Shown here piece after piece: positions 744 through 53,962 of a stretch of DNA of 64,000 bases (its first letter is position 1; each line of letters opens with the position of its first letter). This DNA comes from a virus, in the IMG/VR virus record IMGVR_UViG_3300020579_000009, positions 1-64,000 of that record, one strand, 5' to 3'. A model generated the notes under the pieces. That model was not told where the DNA came from, ran no database searches, and saw only the letters and a program-made list of their open reading frames with translations. The position numbers and the translations under genes are program-made.

Positions 744-1130
744 ATGAGACCTAGAAGGGCATTTCCTACCATCGCTTTGCTGATTCCGCTGATGCTGGCG
801 GGCTGCGCGGCGCGGCCTATCCATCCCGGCGCTGCCAATTCCTACGACTCTAACGCTTACGACGCGCTGATTGTGGCGCACAGCGTCATTGAGACTACCA
901 AGACCGATTTGGCGAACAATGCCTTCCCCGCATCTATCGCCGGAAACGTCAAGACGGCGCTGAACGACCTGATACGCGGCTATGACGTGGCGCAGACAGC
1001 CTACACTGCTTACCACGCTTCGGCAGTAGTGGGCACGGCCACTCCCGCGCAATCGACAGCCCTGACCAACGCTCTCAACGACGTGAACAGCAAGACCGCC
1101 GCGCTCACAGCGGCAAAGGCGGGAAAATGA
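744..1130 (+). CDS. Lipoprotein, possibly lysis accessory or spanin-like
   Basis: Signal peptide with lipobox LAGC, helical Ala-rich mature part, AGGAG RBS. Confidence 0.7.
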   Translation: MRPRRAFPTIALLIPLMLAGCAARPIHPGAANSYDSNAYDALIVAHSVIETTKTDLANNAFPASIAGNVKTALNDLIRGYDVAQTAYTAYHASAVVGTATPAQSTALTNALNDVNSKTAALTAAKAGK

Positions 1131-1827: not shown

Positions 1828-2304
1828 ATGGACACACAATCTGAGGCAAAACTGGCGGAAGTTCACCCTGAACTGGCAAGGCGTATCGAGCAGCTAGCCG
1901 CTTTGCTTTCCTTCCCGCTCATCGTGACTTGTGGCTTGCGAAGCTGGGCGGCTCAGGACACGCTCTTTGCTCAAGGAAGAACTACCCCCGGCCCGGTAGT
2001 GACGAATGCCAGAGGCGGATGGTCGATGCACCAGTTTGGGCTCGCCGTCGACGTGGCTCCCACGGACGGACATAGCGTGGATTGGAATGGCAAAGACGCC
2101 AAGTGGGAAGAGATTCTAGCGAAGGCTCCGAGCGTAGGCTTGGCGGAAGGCGCAACGTGGCGGACGTTCCCCGACGAGCCGCACCTTTATCCACAGGAGA
2201 TTCCGCCAAACCCCGATGACACCCTGCGCTACACCTTCAAAGAAGGCGGCATGGCCGCAGTCAACGCGTGGGCCGATGCCCTGATGGGGATTACCAGCGA
2301 CTAG
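1828..2304 (+). CDS. Endolysin, M15 family (L-Ala-D-Glu peptidase-like)
   Basis: LRSWAAQDTLFAQGRT, SMHQFGLAVD (SxHxxGxAxD) and DEPH motifs. Confidence 0.9.
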   Translation: MDTQSEAKLAEVHPELARRIEQLAALLSFPLIVTCGLRSWAAQDTLFAQGRTTPGPVVTNARGGWSMHQFGLAVDVAPTDGHSVDWNGKDAKWEEILAKAPSVGLAEGATWRTFPDEPHLYPQEIPPNPDDTLRYTFKEGGMAAVNAWADALMGITSD

Positions 2305-2768
2305 CTAACCTGGTTCAAGCTGAAATCCGTCACCTGCACGGGCGCGGCAGCCAGAATCGGAACGTTGAATACATGGCTGATAGCCGTTCCAGCGCCGTTC
2401 ACGCCGGAGATGGTCAGGTTATAGGAAGCTCCGGTGTCGGTAGCCGCCACGGACGCTGTAAACTGGAGCGTCTTGGGGTCTACCGGGCCGAGCGTTACGA
2501 GCGTGTCATCCACGCTGACCACCGGGCCAGAGGTAAGAGGGACAAAGTTCGTTGCCGGGACAAGCCCGATAGCGAAGGTACTGGTGCTGCCTTGCTGCGT
2601 TCCATTGATAGCCATTGATTCTCCTTGAATGATTTGAAACAACTCGAAATCCGTTACCTGGTTGATGCTTACAAGCTGATTGAGAGTGTGCGCGATGCGT
2701 TCGAGTTCATGCGCGATGCGTTCAACTGCCCGCAGTTCCCGTTCTTCCCGCTCTTCTTCGTGCCTCAT
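2301..2768 (-). CDS. Coiled-coil plus beta-sandwich protein with internal in-frame start at 2615
   Basis: Ortholog of 47117..47635; AAGGAG RBS before internal MAINGTQQG. Confidence 0.75.
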   Translation of the reverse strand: MRHEEEREERELRAVERIAHELERIAHTLNQLVSINQVTDFELFQIIQGESMAINGTQQGSTSTFAIGLVPATNFVPLTSGPVVSVDDTLVTLGPVDPKTLQFTASVAATDTGASYNLTISGVNGAGTAISHVFNVPILAAAPVQVTDFSLNQVS

Positions 2769-2929
2769 CGGATTATAGAAAGAGCATGCCCGCCAGCGAT
2801 TTCAAGCAGAAAAGCCAGTAGGCCGCACGCGAACGATAGCCTGCCGATTTCCTGTAGCTTGGGATTGGCGCTTAGGGCATACATGAGCACACCGACGAGC
2901 GCGACCAATAAGCTGAGATAGATAATCAT
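2765..2929 (-). CDS. 54-aa two-TM membrane protein (holin-like)
   Basis: Translated by hand: MIIYLSLLVALVGVLMYALSANPKLQEIGRLSFACGLLAFLLEIAGGHALSIIR; conserved at 47632..47796. Confidence 0.75.
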   Translation of the reverse strand: MIIYLSLLVALVGVLMYALSANPKLQEIGRLSFACGLLAFLLEIAGGHALSIIR

Positions 2930-3989: not shown

Positions 3990-4727
3990 TTACTGTTTGG
4001 TCAGCTCCAGCCAATGCAGATTGAACAGATACCCTGCCGTTCCTGAGCAAACAAAATGCAGCGTCACTGGCCCTGCTGGAAGAGCGAGAATCGGCCCTGC
4101 TACCGTTTGCCACGTCTGCCAGCCGCCTGTCGCGGGGATAGAGACAACGCCCAGCATGGTGCCTCCCTGCTGAATCGTGAGTGTGCCGCCATGAGCGCCC
4201 GAAGAAGAACGAACGGTTAGTGCATAGTTCCCTGCTGCCGGCACCGAAACCGAATAGTCGTAGGTCTGGCCGTTCTGGATGAAACCAACATCGAGCACGG
4301 AGCCGGAATCGGTCGTGTTTTCCGTCTGCATCGCTGGGACGGCAGCGATAGCGGTTGAGGCTTCCACATGCACGATGACGGCGACGGGCGGGAGAGTGCC
4401 TTGCTGGAGCGCCGCGATTTGAGCCTGCATCGTTGTGATTTGTGAAGCGAAGCCCGTAGCCTGGGATTGGAGAGTCGAGATAGTCGCTTCGTCACTAGCG
4501 AGTTGTGTCTTGAGCGCGGCAATAGCACCTGCATCGTTCTGCTGAAGCTGAAATACGGTGGCGATGTTGTTCTCTATCGTGGATTTGTAGCTGAGCAGCG
4601 CAATCGAAGCGTTGGTCTGTGAGGTCGTCACATCGGGGTAGACCGCAAGCGATGGAGCCTGCGCGTTAAGGCTTATAGCACAGCAGAGAACGAAAATTAC
4701 TAGGGTCTTTCTCAACTTTACCTCCAT
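3990..4727 (-). CDS. Secreted coiled-coil protein with CBM6-like carbohydrate-binding module
   Basis: Signal peptide ...AISLNA-Q, coiled coil, and the CBM6 hallmarks ENTTD..VGFI..G..Y and TGGWQTWQTV. Confidence 0.8.
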   Translation of the reverse strand: MEVKLRKTLVIFVLCCAISLNAQAPSLAVYPDVTTSQTNASIALLSYKSTIENNIATVFQLQQNDAGAIAALKTQLASDEATISTLQSQATGFASQITTMQAQIAALQQGTLPPVAVIVHVEASTAIAAVPAMQTENTTDSGSVLDVGFIQNGQTYDYSVSVPAAGNYALTVRSSSGAHGGTLTIQQGGTMLGVVSIPATGGWQTWQTVAGPILALPAGPVTLHFVCSGTAGYLFNLHWLELTKQ

Positions 4728-5091
4728 GTGTCGCTGCCTGAATCGCCGTCACTGTGTTCCATGTTGTTGCTCCGGCTGTCGGCAAGAGCCAATCCCAATG
4801 GAACCTGTCATCCTCGCTCTTGCGCCAGTAGTGCGATAGCTGCCCCATGCCGACCGAGAAGCCGAAACGGATACTCTCGCGGGCCTTGAATTCTCCGTAG
4901 CCTCCATCTGGGCAATGCCCTCCGATGCCGAACTGCTGGCGGCAGGTGTGAATGTAGTGCGTGGCGGCAACGGAACTGCCAGCCGGAAGTACGAAGTCGG
5001 TCAGGACATGGAGCACAACCTTACGTGGCCCCGCCACCGCCAGCCCCGGCAAGAGAAGGAAGAGAAGGGCGAACTTTATTGATTGGTGCAT
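4666..5091 (-). CDS. Signal-peptide-bearing hypothetical protein
   Basis: KFALLFLLLPGLAVA signal; in line with the operon. Confidence 0.6.
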   Translation of the reverse strand: MHQSIKFALLFLLLPGLAVAGPRKVVLHVLTDFVLPAGSSVAATHYIHTCRQQFGIGGHCPDGGYGEFKARESIRFGFSVGMGQLSHYWRKSEDDRFHWDWLLPTAGATTWNTVTAIQAATHGGKVEKDPSNFRSLLCYKP

Positions 5092-7328
5092 AGGATTTGG
5101 ATTATCTCCGTGTTGCTAGCACCCGGAGTGTTGTTGAACGTAAAAACTACTCCGGTATTTGTCAATGCAGTAGGTGTTAGAAATTCTGAGGCCGCAAGAA
5201 TTGGCTGTGTTCCACCCACCTGATACGCGCTGCAAAACGCTGGAGCTTGAATGAATGGCGTGGGAAATGTATAGGTGATAGTTGGATTAGCTGTTAGGCC
5301 GACAGTGCCGTTCGTGATTGTTCCTTGAACGGATTGCGTGGCTCCAGTTAAAGCCGTCCATGCGGCGGTGGGTGTATTACCCCACCCGCTACTGAGCACT
5401 AGCTTAGCTGCTGTGATGGGAGTGCCTGTTACAGAGCAGGAGCCGAAAGTATTGATTGCAGAGTTGGCGATACTGCCTTGCGTGAACGTGTTGGCGCACG
5501 CATCGGTGAAATTGATGGTGCCGCTGGTCTTGGTGAACATTGACATCTTCGTGCCGATAGCGGAGAGAGTTGCGCTGTAGGCGTTGATATTGCAGTTTGT
5601 CGGGTTGGCTCCGCAGAAGAACAGAGAAGAGTTGCCAGTCCCAGAACTATTCGATTCGGTAATTTTCGTGCCGCTTAAATTCACTGTTGCTGTTCCGTTG
5701 TTGTTGAAGAAAATCCCGAATGTGGCGTTGCCGTTGCTCGCGCCAATAAGATAGTCGCTGAAGGAATTCCATGTCCCGTTACTTTCGAGTCTTACCGCAG
5801 GGACGTTGCCAGCGCCGCTCGCGTTCACTCCCCAATACATCCCACCAGTCGAGTTGACGATGTTGCCGTTGAGGTCGAGCCACAGAGACGCCCCTCCACC
5901 GCCAGCGGCTCCGTCTGAGCCGAAGCAGTCGAGAGCATTGAGTGTGAGGATGTTCCCGGAAGCGAAGCGGCAATTCGTATTTCCGAAGCCCTCTGTAACG
6001 ATGTTGCTAAAGTAGGTGACGCCGCACCCGCCCTTGCCCAGTAGTCCTGTCGAGCTTGCAGAGGCAGCCTCCCACATGCTGAAGGACATATTCCAAGCGG
6101 CCATTGCCGTACAGTTTGGGTTGACGCCTTCAAATTCGATGAGGTTGACGGCGTGGGTCGTTCCGGCATCCGACTGGCCGTATCCCCATACGCCCCAATC
6201 GTGGGCATACCAATTCGCGGGGCCGACGATGCATCCAGCGAGGCTTTGGCCACCCGTGCAGTTAGCAAAGTTCGTGCTAGGTAGAGGGACTAGGATAGAG
6301 TTGCCCATTCCCTGTCCCGCTACGGACGGGCCTACCTGCGTATCGTCTGCGAGCGCGACTCCGGCACAAGGGCTTCCGGTGGGCACCGTGCCGACATTGA
6401 GCAGGCCCCCAGATGGAATCGTAATGAACGCCTGCCCTGAAGGAAACACAACAGTCTTGCAAGTAGTGCCCGCCCACGCAGCAATTGCGGTATTCTGGAT
6501 GGCGGTTGAATCGTCCTGCGTTCCCCAAACGAGGGCGCAGATGTGTCCACCAGCTTGCGTACACGATGCCGTGGCATTGTCAACGGCACAGCCGGGGAAA
6601 GTCGTTCCGACACTTATACTATTTGCGCTGTTGATGGTGCAGATAAAGCCTTGAGGTAGAATCACGCTTCCGCAAGATGCGCCGTTGCAGCCAACCGTCA
6701 TGCTGTCGGGAGCGGTCGTTCCAAAGACAATCTTCCCTAAGTCTGCGCTGGTAAATCCGCAACTCGCATCCGGGCAGGTCACGGTATTGCTGTTTTGCAC
6801 GAATGTCGCAGCGGAATTGGATTTCACGTCCCACTTCGCGCCGAACGATAGAGGGCTTAGAGAGAAACCGATACTGGAATCCACCGTCCAAGTATTCGTC
6901 GCCGTGCAAATGTAGATGCCAAAAGGGATGACTGAAAGCTGAACCGGAGCCGTCGTTCCCGGTGTGCATGTAGCAGGCAGCGAAGAGACAGACGTGATGC
7001 CGGAGCCGGAGCCGCCAATGGAAACCGTCTGCCTATTTGCGCTATTGTAGCCTGGCCCCGATAACTGAATGACATAGGTGCCAGATGCAATGTAGAACGT
7101 TGCGAAACCGGAAGGCCCAAGTTGAATGGGCTGGGCAATGGATTGGGTCAGCCCGACATCAGAGAAGATAGCTGCCGTTACTGGGCAGGGATAGCCATTA
7201 TCAGGCGAAGGGCAGACGCGGAGTTGGGCGTTGGGAGCAGGGGGGCTGAGATTAAAAATGGTGCCCTGCGCTTCGGCGTAGCCAGCCCAAGCCAAAATCA
7301 TCAGCAATGCAAATAATATTCTTCTCAT
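5076..7328 (-). CDS. Tailspike/depolymerase-like beta-helix protein with Sec signal peptide
   Basis: Start MRRILFALLMILAWAGYAEA-Q at an ATGA overlap. Particle-binding-like N-domain (IFSD...QPIQL...FYIASGTYVIQ). SPLSFGAKWD and DDSTAIQ...VVFPSG are pectate-lyase-superfamily start motifs. Confidence 0.8.
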   Translation of the reverse strand: MRRILFALLMILAWAGYAEAQGTIFNLSPPAPNAQLRVCPSPDNGYPCPVTAAIFSDVGLTQSIAQPIQLGPSGFATFYIASGTYVIQLSGPGYNSANRQTVSIGGSGSGITSVSSLPATCTPGTTAPVQLSVIPFGIYICTATNTWTVDSSIGFSLSPLSFGAKWDVKSNSAATFVQNSNTVTCPDASCGFTSADLGKIVFGTTAPDSMTVGCNGASCGSVILPQGFICTINSANSISVGTTFPGCAVDNATASCTQAGGHICALVWGTQDDSTAIQNTAIAAWAGTTCKTVVFPSGQAFITIPSGGLLNVGTVPTGSPCAGVALADDTQVGPSVAGQGMGNSILVPLPSTNFANCTGGQSLAGCIVGPANWYAHDWGVWGYGQSDAGTTHAVNLIEFEGVNPNCTAMAAWNMSFSMWEAASASSTGLLGKGGCGVTYFSNIVTEGFGNTNCRFASGNILTLNALDCFGSDGAAGGGGASLWLDLNGNIVNSTGGMYWGVNASGAGNVPAVRLESNGTWNSFSDYLIGASNGNATFGIFFNNNGTATVNLSGTKITESNSSGTGNSSLFFCGANPTNCNINAYSATLSAIGTKMSMFTKTSGTINFTDACANTFTQGSIANSAINTFGSCSVTGTPITAAKLVLSSGWGNTPTAAWTALTGATQSVQGTITNGTVGLTANPTITYTFPTPFIQAPAFCSAYQVGGTQPILAASEFLTPTALTNTGVVFTFNNTPGASNTEIIQILCTNQ

Positions 7329-8047
7329 CCCAGGTACTCCAATCTTACCCGCAATGCGTACAGTCCAGTAGAGCCCGTATTCGTGGTGGCGTAAGTGATA
7401 TTCTGACTTGCTGCGCTGAAAAATAGAAAGGAATTTGTTATTGGCGAACAATCACTTCCCAAACTCGCCAGATTCGCACTTCCTGAATTTATAGTTACCG
7501 GGCCGGAAGGCCCGTTGTTATACCCAATGGCAGAAGAAACAGTGCCCGCGCTTCCCGCCGTGGTGGTAAAAAGATAGACCGTAGCACGGTAAATCCCCGC
7601 TCCGGTCGATGGGACGGCATATAGTGTCGTCGTTCCAATGCTGGCATTTTGCCCCAGCACAGTCGCACTTGCCACGATTGCCGGAAGTTGAGTGGCGATG
7701 ACTGGCGGAAGAACTGTGCCTGTCGCCGCTAGTGTATTGAGGTTCGCGCTTGTGCCAACGATGCTATATTGAACAGGCCCAATCTCGTTCCCCTGGAAGT
7801 CCCTGAACGTCACGGCGTAAAGCGTGTTTGATGGAGTGATGTTGTCGTTACCCCACAAAGGCAAAGTGAAGGTTCCATCTTGCGCGGTCATGGCTGTGTA
7901 GGTCAGTGCAGGAATGATGCTTGTGCCGGAGACACCTATCGGGTTGCCAGTTCCAATGTTTGTGAGCTGGAAGATGACCTTTCCCTGCGCGATTTTCCCG
8001 CTGGTGAGAGTCTGTAGGGTGCCTGTTACGGTGCAAGGTGTGGGCAT
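7325..8047 (-). CDS. Tail fibre/appendage protein with C-terminal jelly-roll-like domain
   Basis: N-terminal TVTGTL...DGTFTLPLWGNDNITP attachment-type domain; C-domain resembles 63223 and 51286 proteins. Confidence 0.65.
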   Translation of the reverse strand: MPTPCTVTGTLQTLTSGKIAQGKVIFQLTNIGTGNPIGVSGTSIIPALTYTAMTAQDGTFTLPLWGNDNITPSNTLYAVTFRDFQGNEIGPVQYSIVGTSANLNTLAATGTVLPPVIATQLPAIVASATVLGQNASIGTTTLYAVPSTGAGIYRATVYLFTTTAGSAGTVSSAIGYNNGPSGPVTINSGSANLASLGSDCSPITNSFLFFSAASQNITYATTNTGSTGLYALRVRLEYLG

Positions 8048-8577
8048 CAGCTTAGGCGGTTGACGTTCCCGCCCCTCCCAAAGATTCCACCACCGCCACC
8101 TACTCCACCGCCTACTCCGCCTTGATTCACTGGCGTCTGCGAAACAGGTATGACCGTGGCACCGCCGCCAAGCGCTGCACCCGGAGCCGGAGCCGATACC
8201 GCGCTTCGGTCGCCATTCTTATCAATCGCCTGTACCCAATAGAATCGCGTAACGGTGTCATTGAGACTCGCTCGCATGAAGGAATTGCTTGAACCTCCCA
8301 AGTTTGCCGGAACGGTTGTTAGCGGCACGCCAGCCGGAACTTGGTTGGTAGAGGTTTCAAAGACAGCATAACTCGCCGCATTGACAACTTCGTTCCATGC
8401 AACCTGAACTGCATTGGGATGTGAAATCGTCGTTACCATCGGCGCAGCGGGAGGAAAAAGACTGCCCTGCACCTGATTGGCAACGGTCATCAGCCAGGTC
8501 AGAAAGTCGTAGGTCGCTGGGCCAAGAGCGGAGTCCTGTGGCACACCGTTCCACACGCGACGTGGGCCGCTAGGCAT
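8047..8577 (-). CDS. Tail protein with Fn3-like domain
   Basis: VQVAWNEV..AASYAVF...RFYWVQAIDKNG..S..S; Gly-rich tail. Confidence 0.65.
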   Translation of the reverse strand: MPSGPRRVWNGVPQDSALGPATYDFLTWLMTVANQVQGSLFPPAAPMVTTISHPNAVQVAWNEVVNAASYAVFETSTNQVPAGVPLTTVPANLGGSSNSFMRASLNDTVTRFYWVQAIDKNGDRSAVSAPAPGAALGGGATVIPVSQTPVNQGGVGGGVGGGGGIFGRGGNVNRLS

Positions 8578-9103
8578 TCTTGGCCACCTTAAAAATCTTC
8601 TTGGTGTTCACGGGATTCCCATTAGGAATAAGCGAATGCACGTTGAATCCGTCACGGATTACGGCGATGCTTCTGACATCAGTAACAAACAGGCAATCGC
8701 TTTCCCTGTCCAGCAACTTCTCGAAGTTTGCTATGAATCGCTTCTTGTAGCTTGTGAGAGAGTCTCCTTCGCGCAGAGGGATGTCAGGGTTATCGCGCCA
8801 TTTTTCCTCGACAGCTCTAATAGCTCCATCAGCGATAGCAGAATCGCGGGCATGAAAACGTCCGAAATTGAATCTCCGGTATCCGTAATCAGTTCGAACC
8901 GGGACTCCAAGCTCATTCCCGGCCACATTCCCTGCCTCAGAGTCCAAGTCTGAGCTGACAACATGAGCCACCTTGCCTTTCAGTGGAGCGAGTAGCGCTC
9001 GCCATTCATTCTTGGCCTTACGCTCCAGCGGCACGAAACGCCAGCCAGAGACACGACCGCGCCTGTCTAGCTTGTTTTCTGGGGCAGCCACAACGTAAAT
9101 CAT
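8570..9103 (-). CDS. Histidine phosphatase (PGM)-fold protein lacking catalytic residues
   Basis: RVSGW..VPL, VVSSDL, RRFNFG, NPDIP..GDSL..R; RHG replaced by AAP. Confidence 0.7.
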   Translation of the reverse strand: MIYVVAAPENKLDRRGRVSGWRFVPLERKAKNEWRALLAPLKGKVAHVVSSDLDSEAGNVAGNELGVPVRTDYGYRRFNFGRFHARDSAIADGAIRAVEEKWRDNPDIPLREGDSLTSYKKRFIANFEKLLDRESDCLFVTDVRSIAVIRDGFNVHSLIPNGNPVNTKKIFKVAKNA

Positions 9104-10944
9104 TGCGTCTCTCCCAGCATGTCTTTGAAGTCGTCAATCTGACGCTGGATTATCCCGCGCTCCGCGCCCTTCGCGCCTTGTAGTTTTTTCTCCGCGGCAG
9201 CCAGCGATTCCCTTAGCACTTCCTGTCGCATCATGGCGTCCGAGGCTCCGCCAAATGGAGTAGGATTGCCTCTTGGCATGTCGCCCCCGCCTTTAAGCGC
9301 GGCAGCGGCGGCCGCCTTGTTGGGGTAAACCTTCTTCGGAGAGATGTTCTCAGGCTCAAAGCCTTTCCCGCCGAGAAAGTCAGCAGCAGCGGGATTCCTT
9401 AGCATTCGAGGGACACCAGCACGAAGTCCAGCGCTTGTAGGCGATAGCTTGGCGATGAGCAAATCCATCTTGGTAGGTCGCGACAAGCGTTGAACGGTAT
9501 CAATGGCCCCGGAGCGCCCTACTTCTTGGTTGATTTTGTCCATGTTGATGCCGAAAGGCTCGTACTTGCTAAGAATGTCGAGCGTCTGTACGCGGGACTT
9601 TCCGGTGAGCGGTTCCATGATGTCGCTGGCATTTTCGCCCGCGAGTGTTTTTGCAATAGGTGAGCGGTGGAAGTCATCGAGGTAGCCCTTCCACTTCGCA
9701 TTGGCGTCAATCCATTGCGGCTCTTGGCTCGCATCCCGTGCGCCTTCACGCAGGATTTTCGAGAGTTCTCCGTAAGCCGCTGAAGCAGCCGCTTGTGCCG
9801 GGCCTTGTAAGCGGCCCATCTGCCTGCCCAAGTCCGAGCGTGCCTGTTTCACTTCCTCGAAGGTCATTCTTCCCGCTTGTGTCGTTCCAATGTCTCCTAC
9901 AGCAGCTTTAATCTCATTTGGCTGGAAACCTTGCTCCTTGAGAGCCTGTGCGATTTCATCCGGGGCCATGCCGCCTTGCTTCAGGCGATTCACGAAGTCG
10001 GCGGTATTCTTATTGACGAAATTAGCCATCGAAGGCTTTTCCGGCGTGGTCAGTTTCTTAAGGCTGGTTGGCAACTGACTTTGATCTTCGAGCGTGTCAC
10101 CCATTGCCGCTGAAACCCTGCCACGCACTTCCGCCTTGTCAAAGGCCCCTTCTGGTTTTGCAGAGTCAACGGCCTGAGATACCTGAGCCATTGCCTGTTG
10201 AGCGTCCTGGTGGACGGCATCAGCTACGCCAGCGACATGTTTTTGTAGTTCGAGCGCGTGCGCGTGCTGGTCGGCAAGGACACGGACTTTTGATGGCCCT
10301 TCGTTGAGAATCTCTCTTGCCGTATTTTGGAAGGCGGATTTTCCTATGGGGTCAGCAATAGCTTCGGGAACTTTCTCTCCGCCTTTTAGCGTAGCGAGTT
10401 GTGTCCCAAAAGCCGCAATGTCGTGGGCCGACTTACCAACGTCGTACTGCCGCATCTCGCGCTGTGGGCCGCCTGTAACGTTGGTCAATTTACGAAAGAA
10501 ATTGTCGATTAAAGGATTGATTGCATCCATCGCATTGCCGAAGCCAGAAGTAACCGCGCCCGGAACGGCGACAACTGGATTCGTTGTCATGCTGGCTTTC
10601 ATATCTTCCGGCTTGAGCGTCCAGAACTTGCCGATAGTTTTTGCCTGTTCAGTAAGATTTGAACCCAAATCCGAAACAGGGTTCATCGTTTCAGGGATGC
10701 CAACGCCGCTAGCAGCGCCAAGTACGGATTCCCGCGCAATCGTCCCGGCAGTAGAACCATCATCGGGAGCAGTCAACTGCTTGACATTGAGAATTGGCCC
10801 ACCTTTGCGAGACTGCATTGCCCCCGGTTGCATGGCGGCAAGGTGCTGTTCGATAGCCTGATTCACAGATGCATCATCCATTGAGCCGGGAAAACGGACA
10901 GCTCCGACACCTGGAACGCGCACGATTTTGTCCCCATCAGGCAC
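9100..10944 (-). CDS. Large internal virion/DNA ejection protein
   Basis: 614 aa, helical and Ala/Gln-rich, at the ejection-protein position; shares KGGPILN with 55098..57077. Confidence 0.65.
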   Translation of the reverse strand: MPDGDKIVRVPGVGAVRFPGSMDDASVNQAIEQHLAAMQPGAMQSRKGGPILNVKQLTAPDDGSTAGTIARESVLGAASGVGIPETMNPVSDLGSNLTEQAKTIGKFWTLKPEDMKASMTTNPVVAVPGAVTSGFGNAMDAINPLIDNFFRKLTNVTGGPQREMRQYDVGKSAHDIAAFGTQLATLKGGEKVPEAIADPIGKSAFQNTAREILNEGPSKVRVLADQHAHALELQKHVAGVADAVHQDAQQAMAQVSQAVDSAKPEGAFDKAEVRGRVSAAMGDTLEDQSQLPTSLKKLTTPEKPSMANFVNKNTADFVNRLKQGGMAPDEIAQALKEQGFQPNEIKAAVGDIGTTQAGRMTFEEVKQARSDLGRQMGRLQGPAQAAASAAYGELSKILREGARDASQEPQWIDANAKWKGYLDDFHRSPIAKTLAGENASDIMEPLTGKSRVQTLDILSKYEPFGINMDKINQEVGRSGAIDTVQRLSRPTKMDLLIAKLSPTSAGLRAGVPRMLRNPAAADFLGGKGFEPENISPKKVYPNKAAAAAALKGGGDMPRGNPTPFGGASDAMMRQEVLRESLAAAEKKLQGAKGAERGIIQRQIDDFKDMLGETQ

Positions 10945-11912
10945 TAAGGGTTACTCCCCTGAACAGGCTGAATCCCTTGTCCGGGAACATAGACATGCGT
11001 TGCACCATCCCCAGATGGTTTTGGCTTCTTCTGGTTCTGCTTGGCTTGCACTTTGTTGGTCGCAGGCGGAGATGGCAACGCAGCGGTCGGGCCACCCGTT
11101 ACTGGAGCGCCTCCAGACGATACTCCCGGCATCCCCGCCCCGCGAGCTTCGCTTACCCGTTTCGTTACATCATCGAGCCCAAAGGCTTGTGAGAGAATCG
11201 GGTGTTCAAAGGCAAGATTCTGAATCGACTGAATAGCCTGCAATCCTTCGGCAGTTCCCTTCTGGTTTAGAGCGGAGTTGGCAAGGTCAAGAAAACCTTG
11301 CTTAATTCCCATGCCTGTTACGGCGAGTTCATACTTCGCTTGCTCAATCCCTACCTGTTGGACGCGTAGCTTGTAAGTTTTCTCAAATTGCGCGGCCTGA
11401 TTATCAAGACGCTGCTTTGCTACAGAAAGCCGTCCTGCCGCCATGTCTTTCTGCCAGTCGTTCTTTTCCGCCGCGAGGTCGGCCTGTTGCTGCTTGATTT
11501 GGTTGGCGGTATCGCCTTGCTCTTTCTTGCGTTGCACGTCCTCGGCGCGAGTGTCGGCATTCTGCTTCGCTACGTCGGCCAAGTCTCTGCGGTATCCAAG
11601 CTCGCCCTGCTGATAGGCTCCAGTCTGAGCAAGGCGAGCCATCGTCTCGGCCTTCTGTGCTTCAAGCTGCTGGGCCTGCAATCTCTGCTCTGGCGGCATG
11701 GAAGCCCAGCCATAGGACTGTGCTCCGCCAGCAAGCGCCTGAATAATCTTGGCGATAATCGGATGAACGCCAGGGTCAATCTGCCCTTGCATTTGTGGGA
11801 CAGACGAAGCCATCGGGTTAGAAAGGGATTGCTGCGCCTGCTGCATCATCCCCTGCGTTGGGTCAGGCGGCTGTTGGACTAGAGGATTCTGAGGAGTGCT
11901 CATAGCGTCCAA
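10944..11912 (-). CDS. Internal virion/ejection protein
   Basis: Gln-rich coiled coil with Pro-rich termini; synteny. Confidence 0.6.
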   Translation of the reverse strand: MDAMSTPQNPLVQQPPDPTQGMMQQAQQSLSNPMASSVPQMQGQIDPGVHPIIAKIIQALAGGAQSYGWASMPPEQRLQAQQLEAQKAETMARLAQTGAYQQGELGYRRDLADVAKQNADTRAEDVQRKKEQGDTANQIKQQQADLAAEKNDWQKDMAAGRLSVAKQRLDNQAAQFEKTYKLRVQQVGIEQAKYELAVTGMGIKQGFLDLANSALNQKGTAEGLQAIQSIQNLAFEHPILSQAFGLDDVTKRVSEARGAGMPGVSSGGAPVTGGPTAALPSPPATNKVQAKQNQKKPKPSGDGATHVYVPGQGIQPVQGSNP

Positions 11913-12592
11913 CCTCCTGTCGTCGGCGTGCCACCACCTTGTGTGGGCACCGTAGGCACACCTGGAACTGGCCCGAACACGCTAGGAGGCAAAGAGCCAG
12001 GTGTATCGCCAGGCGCTCTCCCCGGTACTTGATTACCCTGTCCTAGTAAGTTTGCAAGAACGCCGCCAAGCCCGCCAAGTCCACTGCCAAGACTTTGATA
12101 AGGGAGTTGCGCTGAGACGTTTGGCTGATTCTGTGACGCTCCCGCCATAGCTCCGGCAGAAGTAAGTCCCTGCTGCGCCTGAAACTTGATTTGCTCGTTA
12201 TTCAGTAGATTCGCTAGATAGTTTCCTGCTCCGCTTGCCGCCATGCCTGAGCCGATATTTGCAAGTCCCGCCGCAGTAGTTCCACTTGGCCCATAGCCCA
12301 ATCCTGTTTGACCTATCTGTTCGCGGAACTGTCCCGCTGCGTTGTTGCCTTGCTGGGCGTTCTGCGCTGCCGCCGCAGCTTGAATATTCTGAAGGAACGG
12401 GCTTCCAGATTTCGTATAGGGCGTATAGAATGCTTCCGCTTGGTCGAAGGCTTTCTGCTTATCGGCCATTTCCTGCTGGGCGATTTGTTCCTGCTGTGTC
12501 AGAGCCTTCTGTTGACGGCCTCCAGCCTTGGATGCCTCGACAGCTCCGGCGATGGCAGCCCCCGCAGCGATAAGCCCTGAAATCAGCGGCAT
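11900..12592 (-). CDS. Small ejection protein (P22 gp7 / T7 gp14-like position)
   Basis: MPLISGLIAAGAAIAGAV N-terminus, Gln-rich, YTPYTKSG motif, Gly-rich; follows the GNAT gene. Confidence 0.7.
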   Translation of the reverse strand: MPLISGLIAAGAAIAGAVEASKAGGRQQKALTQQEQIAQQEMADKQKAFDQAEAFYTPYTKSGSPFLQNIQAAAAAQNAQQGNNAAGQFREQIGQTGLGYGPSGTTAAGLANIGSGMAASGAGNYLANLLNNEQIKFQAQQGLTSAGAMAGASQNQPNVSAQLPYQSLGSGLGGLGGVLANLLGQGNQVPGRAPGDTPGSLPPSVFGPVPGVPTVPTQGGGTPTTGGWTL

Positions 12593-13032
12593 CGAAGTTC
12601 TTTCATGTACGTCACCTCTACCTGCTTATAGCCTAATCTCTCATACAGCTTTCCAACTTCCGCGTTCGGCGCGGTGAATCCCATGCGCGTTGCGCCCATC
12701 TCTCGTGCCTGTTTCTCTGCTTCCCACAAGAGTTTTATCGCTCCGCCTTCCTTGCGTTCTTGCGGCTCGACGTACCACATAATTTCCGTTGCCGTTGGCT
12801 CTCCAGTGAAGTAATGAGGGAAAATAATAAACCCTAAAAGCCCAGCCACTTTGCCACCATCGTTCTCATATAGCAGGACTTTCCCGTTTGCTCCGCCGAT
12901 GACATTGAGCGCCAATTTTGCGCTTTCCTCCGGCGTGTCTTTTAGCATCCCGGCGTATGGGCCATCCTTAAGAGACTGACTACCCAGCCTCACGATGTCG
13001 GATACATCCTCAACCGTCGCCGCTCGTATCAA
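12583..13032 (-). CDS. GNAT-family acyltransferase
   Basis: MIRAATVED, ATEIMWYVEPQERKEGGAIKLL, KLYERLGY motifs. Confidence 0.9.
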   Translation of the reverse strand: MIRAATVEDVSDIVRLGSQSLKDGPYAGMLKDTPEESAKLALNVIGGANGKVLLYENDGGKVAGLLGFIIFPHYFTGEPTATEIMWYVEPQERKEGGAIKLLWEAEKQAREMGATRMGFTAPNAEVGKLYERLGYKQVEVTYMKELRCR

Positions 13033-13253
13033 TGCGCCTCCGCGTAGTTCACAATGTCCTGCACCGATAAAAGATTCTGCGCCTCGCAGTCCGGTATCTC
13101 TTTCCCTAGCCCGTCCTCAAGAGCCTGAATCAAGCTGGCCATTTCGAGAGAGTCCGTAACCAGTGTGACGAGTCGGCAGTCAGGCGTCACCAGCTCCCCC
13201 GTTTCTTGCTGGATAACTCTAGTCACTTTCTCCAATGTCTCGCTTCTCATCAT
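13029..13253 (-). CDS. acpP: Acyl carrier protein
   Basis: 74 aa, acidic; LVTDSLEMASLIQALEDGLGKEIPDCEAQNLLSVQDIVNY matches the ACP DSL phosphopantetheine motif and the EIPD..A...V....Y C-terminus. Confidence 0.85.
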   Translation of the reverse strand: MMRSETLEKVTRVIQQETGELVTPDCRLVTLVTDSLEMASLIQALEDGLGKEIPDCEAQNLLSVQDIVNYAEAH

Positions 13254-13801
13254 TGCGCCATCCTTAGCCCTCTGCCGCCGCCACCGTTACCGCCTCCCAA
13301 ACTTCCAACCGTGGGTGCTGTTGGCACGGTGCTCGCTGCCTGTGGAGCGAAATTAAATCCTAGTCCGTTAAGCGCCTGCTGGAGCCAGGTCATCGGGAGT
13401 CCCGCTTGTGGCGCATTGCCTTCCTGTCCAGATGGGCCGCTGATTTCAGAAAGATTCCCAAGTGGGTTAACTTTCATCACGTTGCCGCCTTGCTTATTGT
13501 TGCTAAACAGTCCTCCGATAGCCGTGGCAAGATTTTGCAAGTAAGAAGAGTCAAAGCCCTGCGATGGGCCACTAGCGCGAATCGCTTGCGGCCCAAGAGT
13601 ATTACTAGTGCCGGGAGCCGGGGCGAGTGGAGGTGTGGGATTTGCAGGGCCTTGTGGGTTCCTGCCATTTTGCGCTGGGCCTGGCAATGCTCCATTTCCG
13701 GGGAACTGTGTCGCTGGATTAGGGCCTTGCTGTGCGGGGCCGGGCATCTTTCCGAACGCCCCGCCAAACGCCGAGCTTGGCCCCATGTAAAGTCCTGGCA
13801 T
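13250..13801 (-). CDS. Pro/Gly/Gln-rich virion-associated protein
   Basis: FDSSYLQNLATAIGGLF is conserved with FDSAYRQDLATYAGGLF of 58867..59454. Confidence 0.7.
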   Translation of the reverse strand: MPGLYMGPSSAFGGAFGKMPGPAQQGPNPATQFPGNGALPGPAQNGRNPQGPANPTPPLAPAPGTSNTLGPQAIRASGPSQGFDSSYLQNLATAIGGLFSNNKQGGNVMKVNPLGNLSEISGPSGQEGNAPQAGLPMTWLQQALNGLGFNFAPQAASTVPTAPTVGSLGGGNGGGGRGLRMAQ

Positions 13802-13802
13802 A

Positions 13803-28152: not shown

Positions 28153-28677
28153 TCAGATTCCTCCATGCCGCGCGGTAAATGCTATGCCGTAGGCGTTGCC
28201 GGAGCCCAAATATAGTCTCGGCAACCGTTCAAGTTTGTGATGGCCTGTCCTATGGAGCAAAAACGAAAGACCCTCACCGGCCCCGTAGAAGGCAAGCTGA
28301 AAGCCCACCATCCCAGCGCAACTCTGAGTAGGCAGGTTCATCTCGCGCTCGCCCCGTGCCAGAAAACGGCAGGTAATCGCTGAATCCGTCGCGGCCAAAG
28401 TCCCGGCTGCGGCTAGTTCCAGTTTTGCGAAGCGGTCGTAAAAGCGATGTTTGGTGAAAGGGCTTTCCGGTTCGGCGTGATAGGCCGTGCCACTATCCTT
28501 TGGAGGGTTCCCCGCGCGCCTTTCGGCAAGCACTACTGGCTTCACCTCTCGGCTAAGCGCCCACGGTTCACCTTGTCTCGCCAACCCCGTACTTACCCTC
28601 TCCTCATGCGCTGGCTCAGTCTGTGCGCCACAGAATTGAGCCATAGCTCCAAGAGCAAAAAGCAAAAGTCCGCTCAT
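28153..28677 (-). CDS. Membrane-associated hypothetical protein
   Basis: N-terminal hydrophobic segment and C-terminal membrane helices; ATGA overlap. Confidence 0.55.
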   Translation of the reverse strand: MSGLLLFALGAMAQFCGAQTEPAHEERVSTGLARQGEPWALSREVKPVVLAERRAGNPPKDSGTAYHAEPESPFTKHRFYDRFAKLELAAAGTLAATDSAITCRFLARGEREMNLPTQSCAGMVGFQLAFYGAGEGLSFLLHRTGHHKLERLPRLYLGSGNAYGIAFTARHGGI

Positions 28678-50329: not shown

Positions 50330-51247
50330 TCAATTGAGCACGCCTTGATTGGTTCCTGATGCGGTGACACAAATAGGCACGCTCCCCGGTATGGGATTCC
50401 CATTGATGGGGTCTATCGGCAACGCGCAACTCAGCATGAGCACGAAGCCAGAGATGCCGTGAAGATTAGCAAGGAACGACCCCGGAAACGGCATGATGCT
50501 GCCCTGATTGATGAGCTTTGCTAAGCCGTCATAGTTGTAGACGTTCAGCGAAACGATGTCGGAAAGAGCGAGAGCCACGGTTCCTGAGATGTTTCCGCTG
50601 GCATCCGGCGTGACGTTGGCGACTTGCTGCGATGCTCCGCTGGATAACTGGTAGATGCCTATGGTTCCTGTAGCTGGAGCGCCGTTAATCAACACCTGCC
50701 CGGAGAAGCTGAAGTTGACGGTTTGCGGTGGAGTGGTGGGCTTGGCGGTCAGCGTGACGTTATCGAAGTCCAGTTGCGACGGCCCGGTAGACGTGATAAG
50801 CACTCCCAGATTCCCCGTGGGTTGCGAGGCTCCTACGGGACAAGGAAGCGTCACCGTAATCCATGCTCCCAAGGGAATCGTGGAACTATCGCCGCTCGTA
50901 GCGCAGAATGAAGCCCCGGCATCGGTCAGGGCAATCTCATAGGCGCTGGAATGGCCGTCATTTCTGTGGCCGATGGAGAGAGTCAGCGTGTAGGTCGTGT
51001 TGATGCGCGGAGCCACGCCGAAATCCTGCGAGCAGGTTCCCCCGTTCATCCAAGCTATGGAGGCTCCATCCGGCAAAGTAGCGAAGTAGCCTACGGGCTT
51101 CCATGTGGCGCAGTTCCCTTTCCATCCGGTAGGAGCCGTTCCGTTCCAGGTGCCAGCGGCAATGGTGTTGCTTTCAAAGCTGCCGTTGGTCACGCTCTGC
51201 GCTGCCGCCAGCCCCGGCAAGAGAAGCAAGAGAAGGATTAGTCTCAC
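50330..51247 (-). CDS. Secreted carbohydrate-binding (CBM4/9-like) protein
   Basis: Signal LILLLLLLPGLAAA-Q; NGSFE...PTGW...YTLTL...W...FDNVTL. Confidence 0.7.
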   Translation of the reverse strand: MRLILLLLLLPGLAAAQSVTNGSFESNTIAAGTWNGTAPTGWKGNCATWKPVGYFATLPDGASIAWMNGGTCSQDFGVAPRINTTYTLTLSIGHRNDGHSSAYEIALTDAGASFCATSGDSSTIPLGAWITVTLPCPVGASQPTGNLGVLITSTGPSQLDFDNVTLTAKPTTPPQTVNFSFSGQVLINGAPATGTIGIYQLSSGASQQVANVTPDASGNISGTVALALSDIVSLNVYNYDGLAKLINQGSIMPFPGSFLANLHGISGFVLMLSCALPIDPINGNPIPGSVPICVTASGTNQGVLN

Positions 51248-51285
51248 GATTCCACCGTCACATTGAACACCGTAGATTCGAGATA

Positions 51286-51642
51286 TCAATTCATATCCTC
51301 AACGACGTAATAAACATTGTAAGTAACGCCTGCTGGAGGCCCTCCTGTTGCTGAGGTGATGGGCTGTCCGGCTTTTACCCGAACTAGAACGGAAAAACCC
51401 GCCGCAGCCACATTGTTAATTGGGTCTACCGATTGGAATTGCCCCGAACCTCCAACGGTCTGAGAACCCAAATCATCTGTGTACATAACAGGCACTGTGA
51501 AAGGAGTTGCTGGCGAGGCTTCAAGATATTCCGATATCCTGAATAGGCCAGAACTACTAGGCGTAAACAAGGTGGCACTAAACGCTCCAGTCTGATTTAG
51601 AGACTGGATTGAAGCTACAATGGTTGGGACTTCAGCTTTCAT
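51286..51642 (-). CDS. Stand-alone jelly-roll-like domain protein
   Basis: IVASI..LNQTG...TLFTP.SSGLFRIS.Y; resembles C-domains of 7325 and 63223 proteins. Confidence 0.6.
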   Translation of the reverse strand: MKAEVPTIVASIQSLNQTGAFSATLFTPSSSGLFRISEYLEASPATPFTVPVMYTDDLGSQTVGGSGQFQSVDPINNVAAAGFSVLVRVKAGQPITSATGGPPAGVTYNVYYVVEDMN

Positions 51643-51655
51643 ATCTTCTCCTTTT

Positions 51656-53962
51656 TTATTTGCTATCACAACTGATTTGAATGACTTCAGTGTCGTTGAC
51701 TGTCGGTGTCCCATTATAGGTAAAAACTACGCCGGTAGTCGTCAAAGAACTAGGAGTCAAAATACTTTGATTATCCGTAATGAGCGGCTGGTTTCCACCA
51801 ACTTCTATAGCCGAACACACCACGCTCGATACATCAACGAATGGCGTCGGAAAAGTGTAGGTAATCGTGGGGTTTGCCGCTTGTCCTGCTCCGGTGTTGG
51901 TGATGGTTCCTTGAACGAGGCGGGTGTTGCCGGAGAGTGCTGTCCATGCCGCCGATGCTCCCCAGCCCGCGCTGAGAACGAGTTTTGCCGCCGTGATGGT
52001 TGTTCCGCTGATGGAGTTTGAACCGAAGTAGGTTCCTGCGGCGATGCTGTTTGCAGAGCCGCCCTGTATAAATGTATTGCCGCCGTCATCATAGAATTGC
52101 GAGCCAGCAGTGGTGATAAGAAATTGATTGTTAGCGCCTGCCGCTTTTACGGTGGTGCCGCGAACGTGCATCTGCGTTACCGTGCTGTTCAGCCAAATGG
52201 CCGCGCCGCCAGCCGACGTAGATAACATGCCCAGAGAATCATTGGTGAGATTCACGGTGCAGGCTGCGACACATTGTGTTTTCATGACGGTACACGCAGT
52301 GCTGAAAGCGCAATTGAGGAAATCCCCGTTGGAATTAAGCATGCCTGTAGAAGTAGCGTCATTGACTAAAACGATGGGGGTCAGGAAGTTCTGTCCGTAG
52401 TAACTACCGTTTGAGTTGATGATGGATGGCTGGCCGTTGGTGCCTGCCAGCAAATTAAAAACGATGGAAGTCCCATTTGAGCCGAAGCAGGCAATCTGGG
52501 CAAGCTGCATGACTACTCCCGCGTTTGTGGCGGTGCAGTTGATTGCGCCGAACAATTCCGAAATGTCGTTGAAATATACCGGGTCGCCGCACGAAGAACG
52601 CCCCATATCAAACCCTACGGCGTTGGGGTCAAGTATTCCCCAGTTGGAAAACGTGAGATTGAATCCCGTAGAGCCTGTGCACCCGCCGCCGAATGGTGAG
52701 CCGTCAAGTTCAAACAGGTTGATAGTGGGATTCCCAGAAATCGAAGCCTGTCCCAATCCATTGATGCCAAAATCGTGAGCCGCAAGATTGGGAATTCCGC
52801 CATTGCAGGCGTGGGCGCTGAATCCGTTCGTGCATCCAGCATAGTTGTAATTCGGCGTTGGAATCAGGACGGAGTTTGCTGGCCCTTGTCCAAAGACTTC
52901 CGGGCCTGTTTGGTTCACGTCGATGGGGGAATTGCCGGAAACGCCAGTCCATCCACCGCACGGAACGCTTAAAGAAGCGCCCGCGATATTCATTACCGGC
53001 CCGCCGATAAAAGCATTGCCTTCCGGGAACTGCAAAGCCTTGCAAGCGCCGGGAGTTGAGAAGGCTGCCGTCGCCGCTGCGTTAATGGCCGTAGCGTCGT
53101 CTTGGCTGCCCCATGCGAGAGCGCAAAGAGGATTCCCTGCCGGGACGCAATTGGCGAGCGCGGTTGCGGCTGCGGTGATGCTGGTCGCGCTGTTGACGGT
53201 CGTGATGGTCGTTTGAGCTAGGAGCGCAGCGTAGTTGCCCGTGCCATTGTTCGCGCTGTTCGGCCCTGCGTAGCCGAAAACAATTTTCCCGACATCCGTC
53301 CCCGCAACTCCCGCTGTCGAGCAAGGATAGACCGCCCCCGGACATTGGAAATTGCAATCCCCTGCTCCGCAAGTAACCGTGGCGCTGCCGATGGAGAACG
53401 TTGCGTTCATGGTATATTTCGCATCCCACTTCGCACCATAGGCGAGCGGAGAAATTGTCTGCGAAGGGTTGGATGGAAACCAGGTATTCGTGGCGGTGCA
53501 GATAAAAACGCCGTAGCCCGTGCCATTGATAGTCAAGTTTACCGGAGCCGTAGTTCCCGGTGTGCAAGTAGCAGGCAGTACAGAGACACTGGTAATGGCG
53601 GAGCCGCCACCACCGCTAGGCCCTGTGAGTGTGATATTGGTTAGGACGGTGGAATAGCCAGTGCCGAAACTCTGGACGACATAGGAACCTGCCGGGGCAA
53701 AGAACGTGTAGTGCCCGTTGGCCTGTACGGAGAATGGGTTAGCTTGCTGCGTGGTGCCGCTCTGGTCGCTGTAGATAAGCGTCAGGGGGGAGCACGGAGG
53801 CCCACCAGACCCACCAGAAGCGCATACAGCGATGCTTGCAGGGCCATTGGGGAATCCGGCAGGAGCTACGCTGCCATCAAACCTCACGACCGCAGGTGTC
53901 GTTTGCTGCGCCCTTGCCAGAGGAGCCAGTAGCAGCAACATAAAAAATAGTATTTTCCTCAT
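51656..53962 (-). CDS. Tailspike/depolymerase-like protein with Sec signal peptide (unit B)
   Basis: MRKILFFMLLLLAPLARA-Q; IYSD..GTT..ANPFS...GHYTFFAPAGSY; SPLAYGAKWD; DDATAINAA...LQFPEG; ortholog of 5076..7328. Confidence 0.8.
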   Translation of the reverse strand: MRKILFFMLLLLAPLARAQQTTPAVVRFDGSVAPAGFPNGPASIAVCASGGSGGPPCSPLTLIYSDQSGTTQQANPFSVQANGHYTFFAPAGSYVVQSFGTGYSTVLTNITLTGPSGGGGSAITSVSVLPATCTPGTTAPVNLTINGTGYGVFICTATNTWFPSNPSQTISPLAYGAKWDAKYTMNATFSIGSATVTCGAGDCNFQCPGAVYPCSTAGVAGTDVGKIVFGYAGPNSANNGTGNYAALLAQTTITTVNSATSITAAATALANCVPAGNPLCALAWGSQDDATAINAAATAAFSTPGACKALQFPEGNAFIGGPVMNIAGASLSVPCGGWTGVSGNSPIDVNQTGPEVFGQGPANSVLIPTPNYNYAGCTNGFSAHACNGGIPNLAAHDFGINGLGQASISGNPTINLFELDGSPFGGGCTGSTGFNLTFSNWGILDPNAVGFDMGRSSCGDPVYFNDISELFGAINCTATNAGVVMQLAQIACFGSNGTSIVFNLLAGTNGQPSIINSNGSYYGQNFLTPIVLVNDATSTGMLNSNGDFLNCAFSTACTVMKTQCVAACTVNLTNDSLGMLSTSAGGAAIWLNSTVTQMHVRGTTVKAAGANNQFLITTAGSQFYDDGGNTFIQGGSANSIAAGTYFGSNSISGTTITAAKLVLSAGWGASAAWTALSGNTRLVQGTITNTGAGQAANPTITYTFPTPFVDVSSVVCSAIEVGGNQPLITDNQSILTPSSLTTTGVVFTYNGTPTVNDTEVIQISCDSK

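Follow-up and report, generated by a model that had tools for sequence, protein, structure and literature searches.

Tailspikes with predicted Sec leaders and paired cysteines in two related short-tailed phages: probable export and a proposed docking step at lysis

The virus record IMGVR_UViG_3300020579_000009 comprises 78,747 bp, and its first 64 kb (64,000 nucleotides) form the window, that is, the whole stretch of DNA analysed here. Within it lie two related genomes of short-tailed soil phages in identical orientation, phage A and phage B, whose tail operons carry genes for the large proteins P0001 (phage A) and P0002 (phage B) that we assign as tailspikes. Both start with a leader of the cleavable type and are rich in apparently paired cysteines, and a short tail fibre of phage B, referred to below as the third protein, is also leader-bearing. 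We consider Sec export and oxidative, disulfide-forming folding outside the cytoplasm highly probable, because secretion signals occur together with fully paired cysteines on spikes and fibres. Docking of the exported proteins onto particles at lysis is a proposal to which we give an even chance, and the complete route, in which homotrimeric beta-helix spikes are exported and then dock at lysis, seems to us just as evenly balanced. Judged by their sequences, these would be ordinary tailspikes and fibres that follow an unusual maturation route. To our knowledge every textbook tailed phage assembles wholly in the reducing cytoplasm, and neither fibres nor spikes are known to use host secretion.

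P0001 and P0002 are orthologs with 40% identity from end to end. They had been described before, in an original prediction made from the window alone, as tailspikes with signal peptides and about two dozen cysteines each. Its coordinates, start codons and counts proved right, translation giving exactly 26 (P0001) and 24 (P0002) cysteines, and the alignment of the two proteins bears out that many of them are equivalent, including those in TCTPG..ICT and in the C-terminal CS..C. The ATG of P0001 overlaps the stop codon of the upstream gene (7325-8047) in the sequence ATGA, as does the ATG of P0002 with the stop codon of its own upstream gene (53959-54594); both upstream genes are tail genes and encode leaderless proteins. 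Both spike genes are encoded in the tail morphogenesis module, where they follow adaptor, nozzle and ejection-like genes on a shared strand, and the spike slot is identical in two relatives, L008 and L009. The fold, the trimer model described below and this operon position support the assignment of P0001 and P0002 as tailspikes.

The leaders are built as MRR-ILFALLMILAWAGY-AEA in P0001, MRK-ILFFMLLLLAPL-ARA in P0002 and MRR-LLIPSLFLFLLPSC-AFA in the third protein, each followed by Q. All three have the positive n-region, the hydrophobic h-region of 7-15 residues and the small residues at -3 and -1 that are typical of signal peptides for Sec and signal peptidase I. In the two spikes, two or three basic residues precede a hydrophobic core of 12-15 residues and the AxA motif ahead of Q. 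The leader of the third protein (MRRLLIPSLFLFLLPSCAFA followed by QS) starts at position 64035 of the full record, beyond the window; its signal and N-domain layout, also part of the original prediction, was found as described. GGAG-type Shine-Dalgarno motifs stand 8-12 nucleotides upstream of the ATGs of P0001 and P0002 (GGGGAGGA in the latter case), and AGGAGG precedes the third protein. Leaders were called with a heuristic of our own, based on the succession of n-, h- and c-regions (n-h-c) and AxA, and not with SignalP, which we count as a point against the route proposed below. By this heuristic about 120 of 137 full-length relatives of P0001 carry a leader, the sequences of which drift while the architecture is kept; a few members of the family have classical leaderless fibre N-termini instead. 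The description of N-termini of the signal-peptide type on both spikes is borne out by their architecture, by the ribosome-binding motifs and by the survey of homologs, and the leaders are not a product of chance. In the family of the third protein 55 of 103 members are leader-bearing and the remainder are distinct leaderless forms. Applied to the whole 78.7-kb record, the heuristic flagged only the three spike and fibre proteins, two proteins encoded downstream of the spikes (P0178 and P0179), a lipoprotein and a pair of small proteins, whereas head, portal, adaptor, nozzle and ejection-like proteins all stayed unflagged. Phage B has a leader on every fibre- or spike-like candidate and no leaderless candidate for receptor binding.

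Other interpretations of these N-termini were considered and rejected. A twin-arginine translocation (Tat) leader is not compatible with the relatives of P0001, in which its RR is replaced by MRK, MKK, MKR or MKIK, nor with leaders that are strongly hydrophobic and only 18-22 residues long. A lipoprotein processed by signal peptidase II was dismissed since there is no cysteine near the cleavage sites of P0001 and P0002 and no conserved lipobox cysteine; the third protein does have LPSC, but its relatives do not keep it (WVPSAYSQ, LLPSAALAQ). A leaderless isoform made from an internal start is disfavoured by the position of the next methionine in P0001 (about residue 209) and by relatives without a conserved methionine after the leader. 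The hydrophobic core of only 12-15 residues argues against an uncleaved membrane anchor.

The cysteines behave as pairs. Among leader-bearing relatives of P0001 the mature protein has an even number of cysteines in 110 of 121 cases (91%) and an odd number in 11 (binomial p 1e-21), and leader-bearing members of the third protein's family are distributed similarly (49 of 55 even, 6 odd). The baseline, given by leaderless open reading frames (ORFs) from the loci of these and related phages, is 58 even versus 77 odd. Co-occurrence in the alignment showed that cysteines of P0001 pair reciprocally with their sequence neighbours, which yields 11 clear and 2 probable pairs, that is, 13 pairs for 26 cysteines. 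The pairs predicted for P0001 include 39-48, 121-141, 185-190, 214-219, 256-264, 290-321, 357-366, 406-435, 453-468, 611-631 and 699-747. Both residues of the pair 453-468 are present in 69 relatives, neither in 52 and a single one in 8; the respective numbers are 36, 90 and 4 for the pair 611-631, and 109, 12 and 6 for the pair 357-366. The C-terminal pair C699-C747 is present in 106 relatives and jointly absent in 11. In the third protein's family, the pair of the N-domain (C..PC) is present in all 19 leader-bearing forms and broken in all three leaderless forms, where the second cysteine is replaced by proline and, in one of them, the first is gone as well. Leaderless forms of this family are generally poor in cysteine, with 21 of 48 having none at all (Mann-Whitney p 2e-10). 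Within the P0001 family, proteins with (2.89%) and without leader (2.86%) are alike in the mean cysteine density of their bodies, the latter set being small and including incomplete entries, and only forms with a W..IDS.G N-terminus are clearly cysteine-poor (6-12 residues). The original prediction had inferred that these phages export their spikes, fold them with disulfides in the periplasm and attach them at or after lysis. Its first two elements are strongly supported by the conserved leaders, by the 91% of even counts, by cysteines that come and go in pairs and by the loss of the N-domain pair in leaderless forms; the attachment step is weighed below.

An AlphaFold2 model of P0001, built on an alignment of 137 relatives, reached a predicted local distance difference test (pLDDT) score of 90.7 and a predicted template modelling (pTM) score of 0.80. 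After the leader helix it shows an N-terminal beta-sandwich (residues 21-105), a hairpin neck and an inserted domain; next come a long beta-helix and, last, the C-terminal beta-sandwich. The top Foldseek matches are phage tailspikes, namely Dettilon gp208, the K2-2 tailspike protein (TSP), LKA1 gp49, AP22 gp54 and that of Sf6 (E 6e-9 to 4e-6, probability 1.00, TM score 0.2-0.4); the CBA120 tailspike is also among the best, and secreted bacterial beta-helix enzymes (AlgE4, GH87) match at lower rank. The beta-helix postulated in the original prediction is therefore borne out by the model and by the tailspike matches, and on this model the beta-helix body is probably the glycan-cutting part. When residues 430-750 were modelled in three copies, the homotrimer scored 0.90 as compared with 0.15 for the best of three controls. 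Among proteins of solved structure, 20 of 30 that form pairs of one chain reach this mark, as does one of 23 that are single chains. Contacts agreed between runs to at least 93%, with partner pLDDT values of at least 86. They recur with a period of about 30 residues (459-464, 490-494, 519-523, 550-552, 582-584, 606-611), and the interface repeats with each rung of the helix as in solved tailspikes. Structure prediction, proposed earlier as a check of trimer geometry, thus delivers a homotrimer that passes its controls. Given that trimers of tailspikes have already been solved, this pass may reflect likeness to them and is not proof.

P0001 resembles the beta-helix tailspikes of podoviruses (P22 gp9, Sf6 gp14, Dettilon/Det7 gp208, LKA1 gp49, AP22 gp54 and the Klebsiella K2-2 TSP) in its beta-helix body, its predicted helix-packed homotrimer, the small N-terminal and the C-terminal beta-sandwich, and a gene that closes the tail module, although sequence identity to them amounts to only 9-14%. 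The podovirus spikes described so far are not known to carry a signal peptide; their cysteines are few, and both folding and attachment take place in the cytoplasm. P0001 and P0002, with their cleavable-type leaders and 24-26 paired cysteines, differ from them in these respects. No paper describing Sec leaders on fibres or spikes of tailed phages was found in full-text searches of the literature, where a match to phage JG068 concerns only a signal-anchor-release (SAR) endolysin. Pfam and PHROGs searches returned no match for P0001, P0002, the third protein or P0177 (a leaderless short-fibre-like protein encoded directly upstream of P0001), nor for most tail-module proteins of phage B. A tblastn comparison of P0001 and of the third protein with 50,697 records of cultured phages was likewise negative.

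The N-domain appears to be a mobile module to which the leader has been added. N-termini of the P0001 type, shared at 60-93% identity, are found on unrelated bodies such as an SGNH hydrolase and a K1-lyase_C-like spike. A common N-domain with differing bodies is the usual pattern of interchangeable receptor-binding proteins mounted on one anchor. The third protein (model pLDDT 84.5) consists of an N-terminal beta-sandwich and a C-terminal C1q/TNF-like head that resembles PRD1 P5, tips of cyanophage short fibres and a Bdellovibrio fibre. The latter match is to the C-terminal domain of Bd2133 of Bdellovibrio bacteriovorus (PMC10769870; Z 7.5, root-mean-square deviation (rmsd) 3.6, 113 aligned residues). 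The chimeric Bdellovibrio fibres, too, are phage-fibre-like trimeric proteins that are used outside the cytoplasm; however, they are cellular proteins of the predator and do not belong to a phage morphogenesis operon, and the match is only at the level of the common C1q/TNF-like fold. The same N-domain (44-49% identity over about 80 residues) is present in the leaderless short fibres P0271, P0275 and P0279 of uncultured phages of about 68 kb (L093, L094 and L096). They differ by the lack of a leader, by proline in place of the second cysteine of the pair and by only 1-3 cysteines in the whole protein. Leaderless forms start with M-x-x-[YF]RFDG, at the same point as the mature exported forms, and in the 68-kb phages they occupy the same slot as their leader-bearing homologs, between head-completion genes and a large tail protein. 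Taken together, the N-domain pair, the common start point and the common slot suggest that the leader has been added cleanly to a fibre domain of structural function and that disulfides track the leader.

In P0185 and P0186 the N-domain of the third protein is joined directly to a P0001-like C-terminal domain (the last 110 residues; LVLSAGWG...ANPTIT...), a layout which suggests that N-domain, body and C-terminal domain shuffle as separate modules. The spike of the close phage A relative L008 (IMGVR_UViG_3300021479_000171, 9878-13865; adaptor and nozzle 99-100% identical) is a mosaic as well, with a leader as in P0001 and a body that is 46-47% identical to either spike. It is followed by genes 100% identical to phage B 51286-51714 and to phage A 3990-4727. 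The mosaic spike and the A- and B-identical genes behind it suggest active cassette exchange at this locus.

The family of P0001 is large; of 1.8 billion representatives, 433 belong to it at E 1e-3 or better. A scan of reference genomes with the pattern of the P0001 N-domain found no relative. The N-domain of the third protein, by contrast, has relatives at 117 places in species-representative genomes. The 80 places kept belong nearly all to Acidobacteriota (Terriglobia, Acidiferrales), several of them on contigs of Mb size, and at 41 of these 80 a homolog of this phage's capsid gene lies 3-5 kb upstream. Most of the proteins concerned are 900-1600 residues long, cysteine-rich and leader-bearing. 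The hosts of phages A and B are thus probably Acidobacteria, and P0001 and P0002, as modelled, are receptor-binding and probably glycan-cutting proteins of short-tailed phages of Acidobacteriota.

Similar leaders are present in a cultured podovirus, Tunturi_2 (PP885685.1), which infects the acidobacterium Tunturiibacter psychrotolerans X5P2. Its late proteins gp12, gp13, gp14, gp16 and gp17, encoded consecutively and directly after a 'tail protein' gene and annotated as tail fiber, pectin lyase or virion structural protein, carry leaders ending in A-x-A ahead of Q. The four large ones have even numbers of mature cysteines (20, 10, 20 and 34), and gp16, with 149 residues, has a single cysteine. 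Tunturi_2 differs from the phages studied here in its 63-kb genome and in showing no tblastn similarity to P0001 or the third protein. Neither signal peptides nor a proteomic analysis of virions is mentioned in the publication on the Tunturi isolates. Tunturi_3 (PP885686.1), which shares the host strain, has annotated fibres without leaders and with 0-7 cysteines, and the notion that all phages of Acidobacteria behave in this way was rejected on account of these fibres. The two isolates represent a natural contrast for experiments.

Based on these data we propose the following route. Expression of the late tail operon would yield a spike precursor with a Sec leader that signal peptidase I can remove, and the chain would cross the inner membrane unfolded and lose its leader ahead of Q. 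Folding and trimerisation would then take place in the periplasm, where 26 or 24 cysteines could form 13 or 12 disulfides, mostly between neighbours, while head and tail core would assemble in the cytoplasm. Spikes may thus meet particles only once holin lesions and lysis merge the compartments, and they would dock via the N-terminal beta-sandwich; surplus trimers may be set free and act as depolymerase. The same route would apply to the short fibre of phage B and to the downstream proteins with carbohydrate-binding modules (CBMs). A conserved leaderless protein of 176 residues encoded just upstream of the fibre/spike slot might be the docking partner. That the spikes are parts of the virion is suggested by the operon position, the ATGA coupling, the slot kept in L008 and L009, the common N-domain, the leaderless orthologs in the same slot, the few family members with classical leaderless fibre N-termini and the leaders on all candidates of phage B. 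It is tempting to extend this model, tentatively and with somewhat more doubt than confidence, to a whole lineage of tailed phages of Acidobacteriota that builds its particles in two compartments. All receptor-binding appendages would then be exported via Sec, locked by disulfides in the periplasm and attached in the seconds between holin triggering and rupture of the envelope, with a docking N-terminus made by signal peptidase.

Several observations weigh against this proposal. P0006, a leaderless relative of P0001, retains all cysteine pairs (24 cysteines), and although such relatives are few, they indicate that many cysteines do not strictly require export. The domain that had been described as resembling a particle-attachment domain is only weakly corroborated as such. 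For the N-domain of the third protein the best fold match is the N-domain of the Pam1 tailspike (7eeq_A; Z 8.9, rmsd 5.8, 92 aligned residues), followed by Sf6 gp14N and P22 gp9N (Z 7.1-7.5), but transthyretin-like and CnaB domains fit equally well (Z 8.1-8.6), the former at lower rmsd, and Z values below 8 are common background. A role of this domain in particle binding is thus a lead and not a result, because transthyretin-like domains score just as well. The Pfam family CarboxypepD_reg (PF13620) is reached only below threshold in relatives (P0244 25.4 bits, P0275 16.9 bits; cut-off 32.3).

Alternatively, and in line with the secreted depolymerases or surface modifiers that the original prediction named as its own alternative, the proteins might be disulfide-bonded depolymerases or lectins that are exported and never join the particle, but strip or bind the exopolysaccharide (EPS) or lipopolysaccharide of the producing cell. 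The benefit, during infection or at lysis, could be that progeny is freed from debris, receptors are destroyed or superinfection is blocked. We regard this as rather unlikely, though it accommodates the evidence for export and disulfides equally well. Phage A encodes the leaderless short fibre P0177, possibly its only receptor binder carried by the virion, and adaptor and nozzle, which could also serve this purpose, have tail-fibre-like segments. The neighbouring proteins P0178 and P0179 combine leaders with carbohydrate-binding modules, as is typical of secreted glycan-active proteins. There is also a bacterial precedent in WceF of Pantoea stewartii (PMC7949094), an exported, trimeric glycan hydrolase with tailspike fold that has kept a P22-like N-terminal domain and serves the cell without joining any particle. 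WceF differs in its 28-residue Tat leader and its location in a bacterial EPS biosynthesis cluster, and disulfides are not mentioned in that study; P0001 and P0002 have short Sec-type leaders without conserved twin arginine, are coupled to a phage tail operon and are cysteine-rich. For enzymes that stay free there is no obvious need to keep an N-domain 60-93% identical across unrelated bodies, nor must their mature N-terminus coincide with the start of leaderless homologs from a structural slot. Phage B would be left without a recognisable receptor-binding protein, and the ATGA coupling to tail genes suggests a structural stoichiometry.

Two further explanations place the proteins differently. 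If Sec were shut down, saturated or bypassed during infection, the leader would go unused, spikes would be assembled in the cytoplasm and oxidation of their cysteines would be deferred until they reach soil water. We know of no studied case in which assembly of a tailed phage is not cytoplasmic, and relatives of the P0006 type, which keep the full set of pairs, imply that oxidation after release must be possible for this fold. Even so, this explanation is improbable. An idle leader would hardly preserve its n-h-c/AxA architecture across hundreds of diverged relatives amid sequence drift, and neither the N-domain disulfide that tracks the leader (19 of 19 versus 0 of 3) nor the cysteine poverty of leaderless forms in the third protein's family would be expected. 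Moreover, an uncleaved hydrophobic N-terminus of 20 residues on the anchor conflicts with leaderless homologs, which start directly with the domain. Still less probable, in our view, is that the genes are not late structural genes but cargo for lysogenic conversion, through which a prophage would alter the surface of its host. N-domain relatives do occur at integrated positions on Mb-sized contigs of Acidobacteriota, and the distal end of a tail operon is a frequent moron site. However, the genes share the strand of the tail genes, their start codons overlap the preceding stop codons, no separate promoter gap was seen, the trait is also found in Tunturi_2, a cultured isolate forming lytic plaques, and in prophage loci the large N-domain protein follows 3-5 kb after the capsid gene, inside the morphogenesis block.

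Coordinates of the features are compiled in Table 1.

Table 1. Features of phages A and B discussed in the text (positions in the window unless indicated otherwise).
Feature	Position	Strand	Basis or remarks
P0001, tailspike precursor, phage A, 750 residues, 26 Cys	5076..7328	(-)	ORF and translation; last large gene of the tail operon
P0001 signal peptide, residues 1-20, MRRILFALLMILAWAGYAEA / QG, predicted cleavage before Q21	7269..7328	(-)	RR n-region, 14-residue hydrophobic core, A-E-A at -3..-1
P0001 mature N-terminal beta-sandwich, residues 21-105, pair C39-C48	7014..7268	(-)	32% identical to N-domain of the third protein
P0001 right-handed parallel beta-helix body, about residues 290-625	5454..6461	(-)	Regular strand ladder in model; predicted trimer interface
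P0001 C-terminal beta-sandwich, about residues 640-750, pair C699-C747	5079..5411	(-)	Model; part of trimer contacts
P0002, tailspike precursor, phage B, 768 residues, 24 Cys	51656..53962	(-)	Translation; last large gene of the tail operon
P0002 signal peptide, residues 1-18, MRKILFFMLLLLAPLARA / QQ	53909-53962	(-)	
Third protein, leader-bearing short tail fibre, phage B	63223..64035 of record (window holds to 64000)	(-)	Full ORF; 103 relatives
P0177, leaderless short-fibre-like protein, phage A, 240 residues	7325..8047	(-)	C-terminal domain homologous to that of the third protein, BLASTP E 5e-5 over 116 residues
P0178, signal peptide, coiled coil and CBM6 lectin domain, downstream of phage A spike	3990..4727	(-)	Pfam CBM_6 E 2.5e-24; leader MEVKLRKTLVIFVLCCAISLNAQA
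P0179, leader-bearing HpiC1-like/CBM-like protein, downstream of phage B spike	50330..51289	(-)	Pfam HpiC1-like E 6e-18; true start probably internal, ahead of LILLLLLLPGLAAAQS
Conserved leaderless 176-residue tail-module protein, just upstream of fibre/spike slot	8047..8577	(-)	76-87% identical in L008/L009, position kept; weak PHROG tail matches
Terminase, phage A			Pfam Terminase_3
Major head protein, phage A	20142..21434	(-)	phrog_14242 E 9e-32; 25-27% identical to capsids of Arthrobacter/Microbacterium phages
Nozzle-like protein (874 residues) and adaptor (323 residues), short-tail machine, phage A	13803..17398	(-)	Adaptor: Pfam SU10_adaptor 30.2 bits (cut-off 27); PHROG tail-fibre/tail matches
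Lysis region, phage A	744..2304	(+)	Lipoprotein, small membrane protein, M15 peptidase endolysin
Lipoprotein, lipobox LAGC	744-1130	(+)	May be a spanin or exclusion protein
M15 peptidase endolysin, leaderless	1828-2304	(+)	

With respect to the record itself, bases 1-127 are repeated exactly at 44883-45009, from which it appears to consist of a closed 44.9-kb genome of phage A with an appended part of phage B; a second direct repeat of 77 nucleotides (721-797 vs 45071-45146) is 97% identical. The phage B portion, about 34 kb and incomplete, repeats the gene order of phage A and extends to the end of the record. The arrangement could be an assembly join via shared sequence or a true tandem pair. 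Capsid and terminase are only 22-28% identical to those of any isolate, and there is no close cultured phage. A cytoplasmic endolysin implies holin-dependent lysis; since that of phage A is leaderless, a holin breaching the inner membrane is needed. Candidate holins are 54-residue proteins, nearly identical in both phages, with two hydrophobic stretches (MIIYLSLLVALVGVLMYALSANPKLQEIGR...; 2765-2929 (-) and 47632-47796 (-)). Both tail modules further encode a His_Phos_1 protein of the histidine phosphatase superfamily (E 2.7e-8; 8570-9103 (-) and 54595-55101 (-)) that is kept in L008 and L009. Between its tail genes and its ejection-like genes, phage A has two small genes (74 and 149 residues; 12583-13253 (-)) that phage B lacks; both are kept in L008 and the longer one also in L009. 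Immediately ahead of the terminase genes, the late operon is headed by genes for small proteins whose N-terminus resembles a leader (MSGLLLFALGAMAQFCGA...), at 28153-28740 (-) and, in the record, at 75067-75501 (-). Their DNA is 84% identical between A and B, far above the flanking genes.

Split assembly as proposed here, if true, would be a new step in the morphogenesis of tailed phages and would question assembly confined to the cytoplasm. Infectivity would then depend on SecYEG, signal peptidase and thiol oxidases of the host, which may include new host factors or targets of defence, and the very stable, disulfide-locked receptor-binding proteins of soil phages would find an explanation. 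In that case, a signal peptide should no longer speak against a virion role in automated annotation and in predictors of phage-host pairs. Were the proteins to stay free, a habit, common among phages, of exporting depolymerases and lectins derived from tailspikes would still be a remarkable means of coping with the thick exopolysaccharide that Acidobacteria produce. Since Tunturi_2 carries the same trait on Tunturiibacter psychrotolerans, the question is directly testable in culture.

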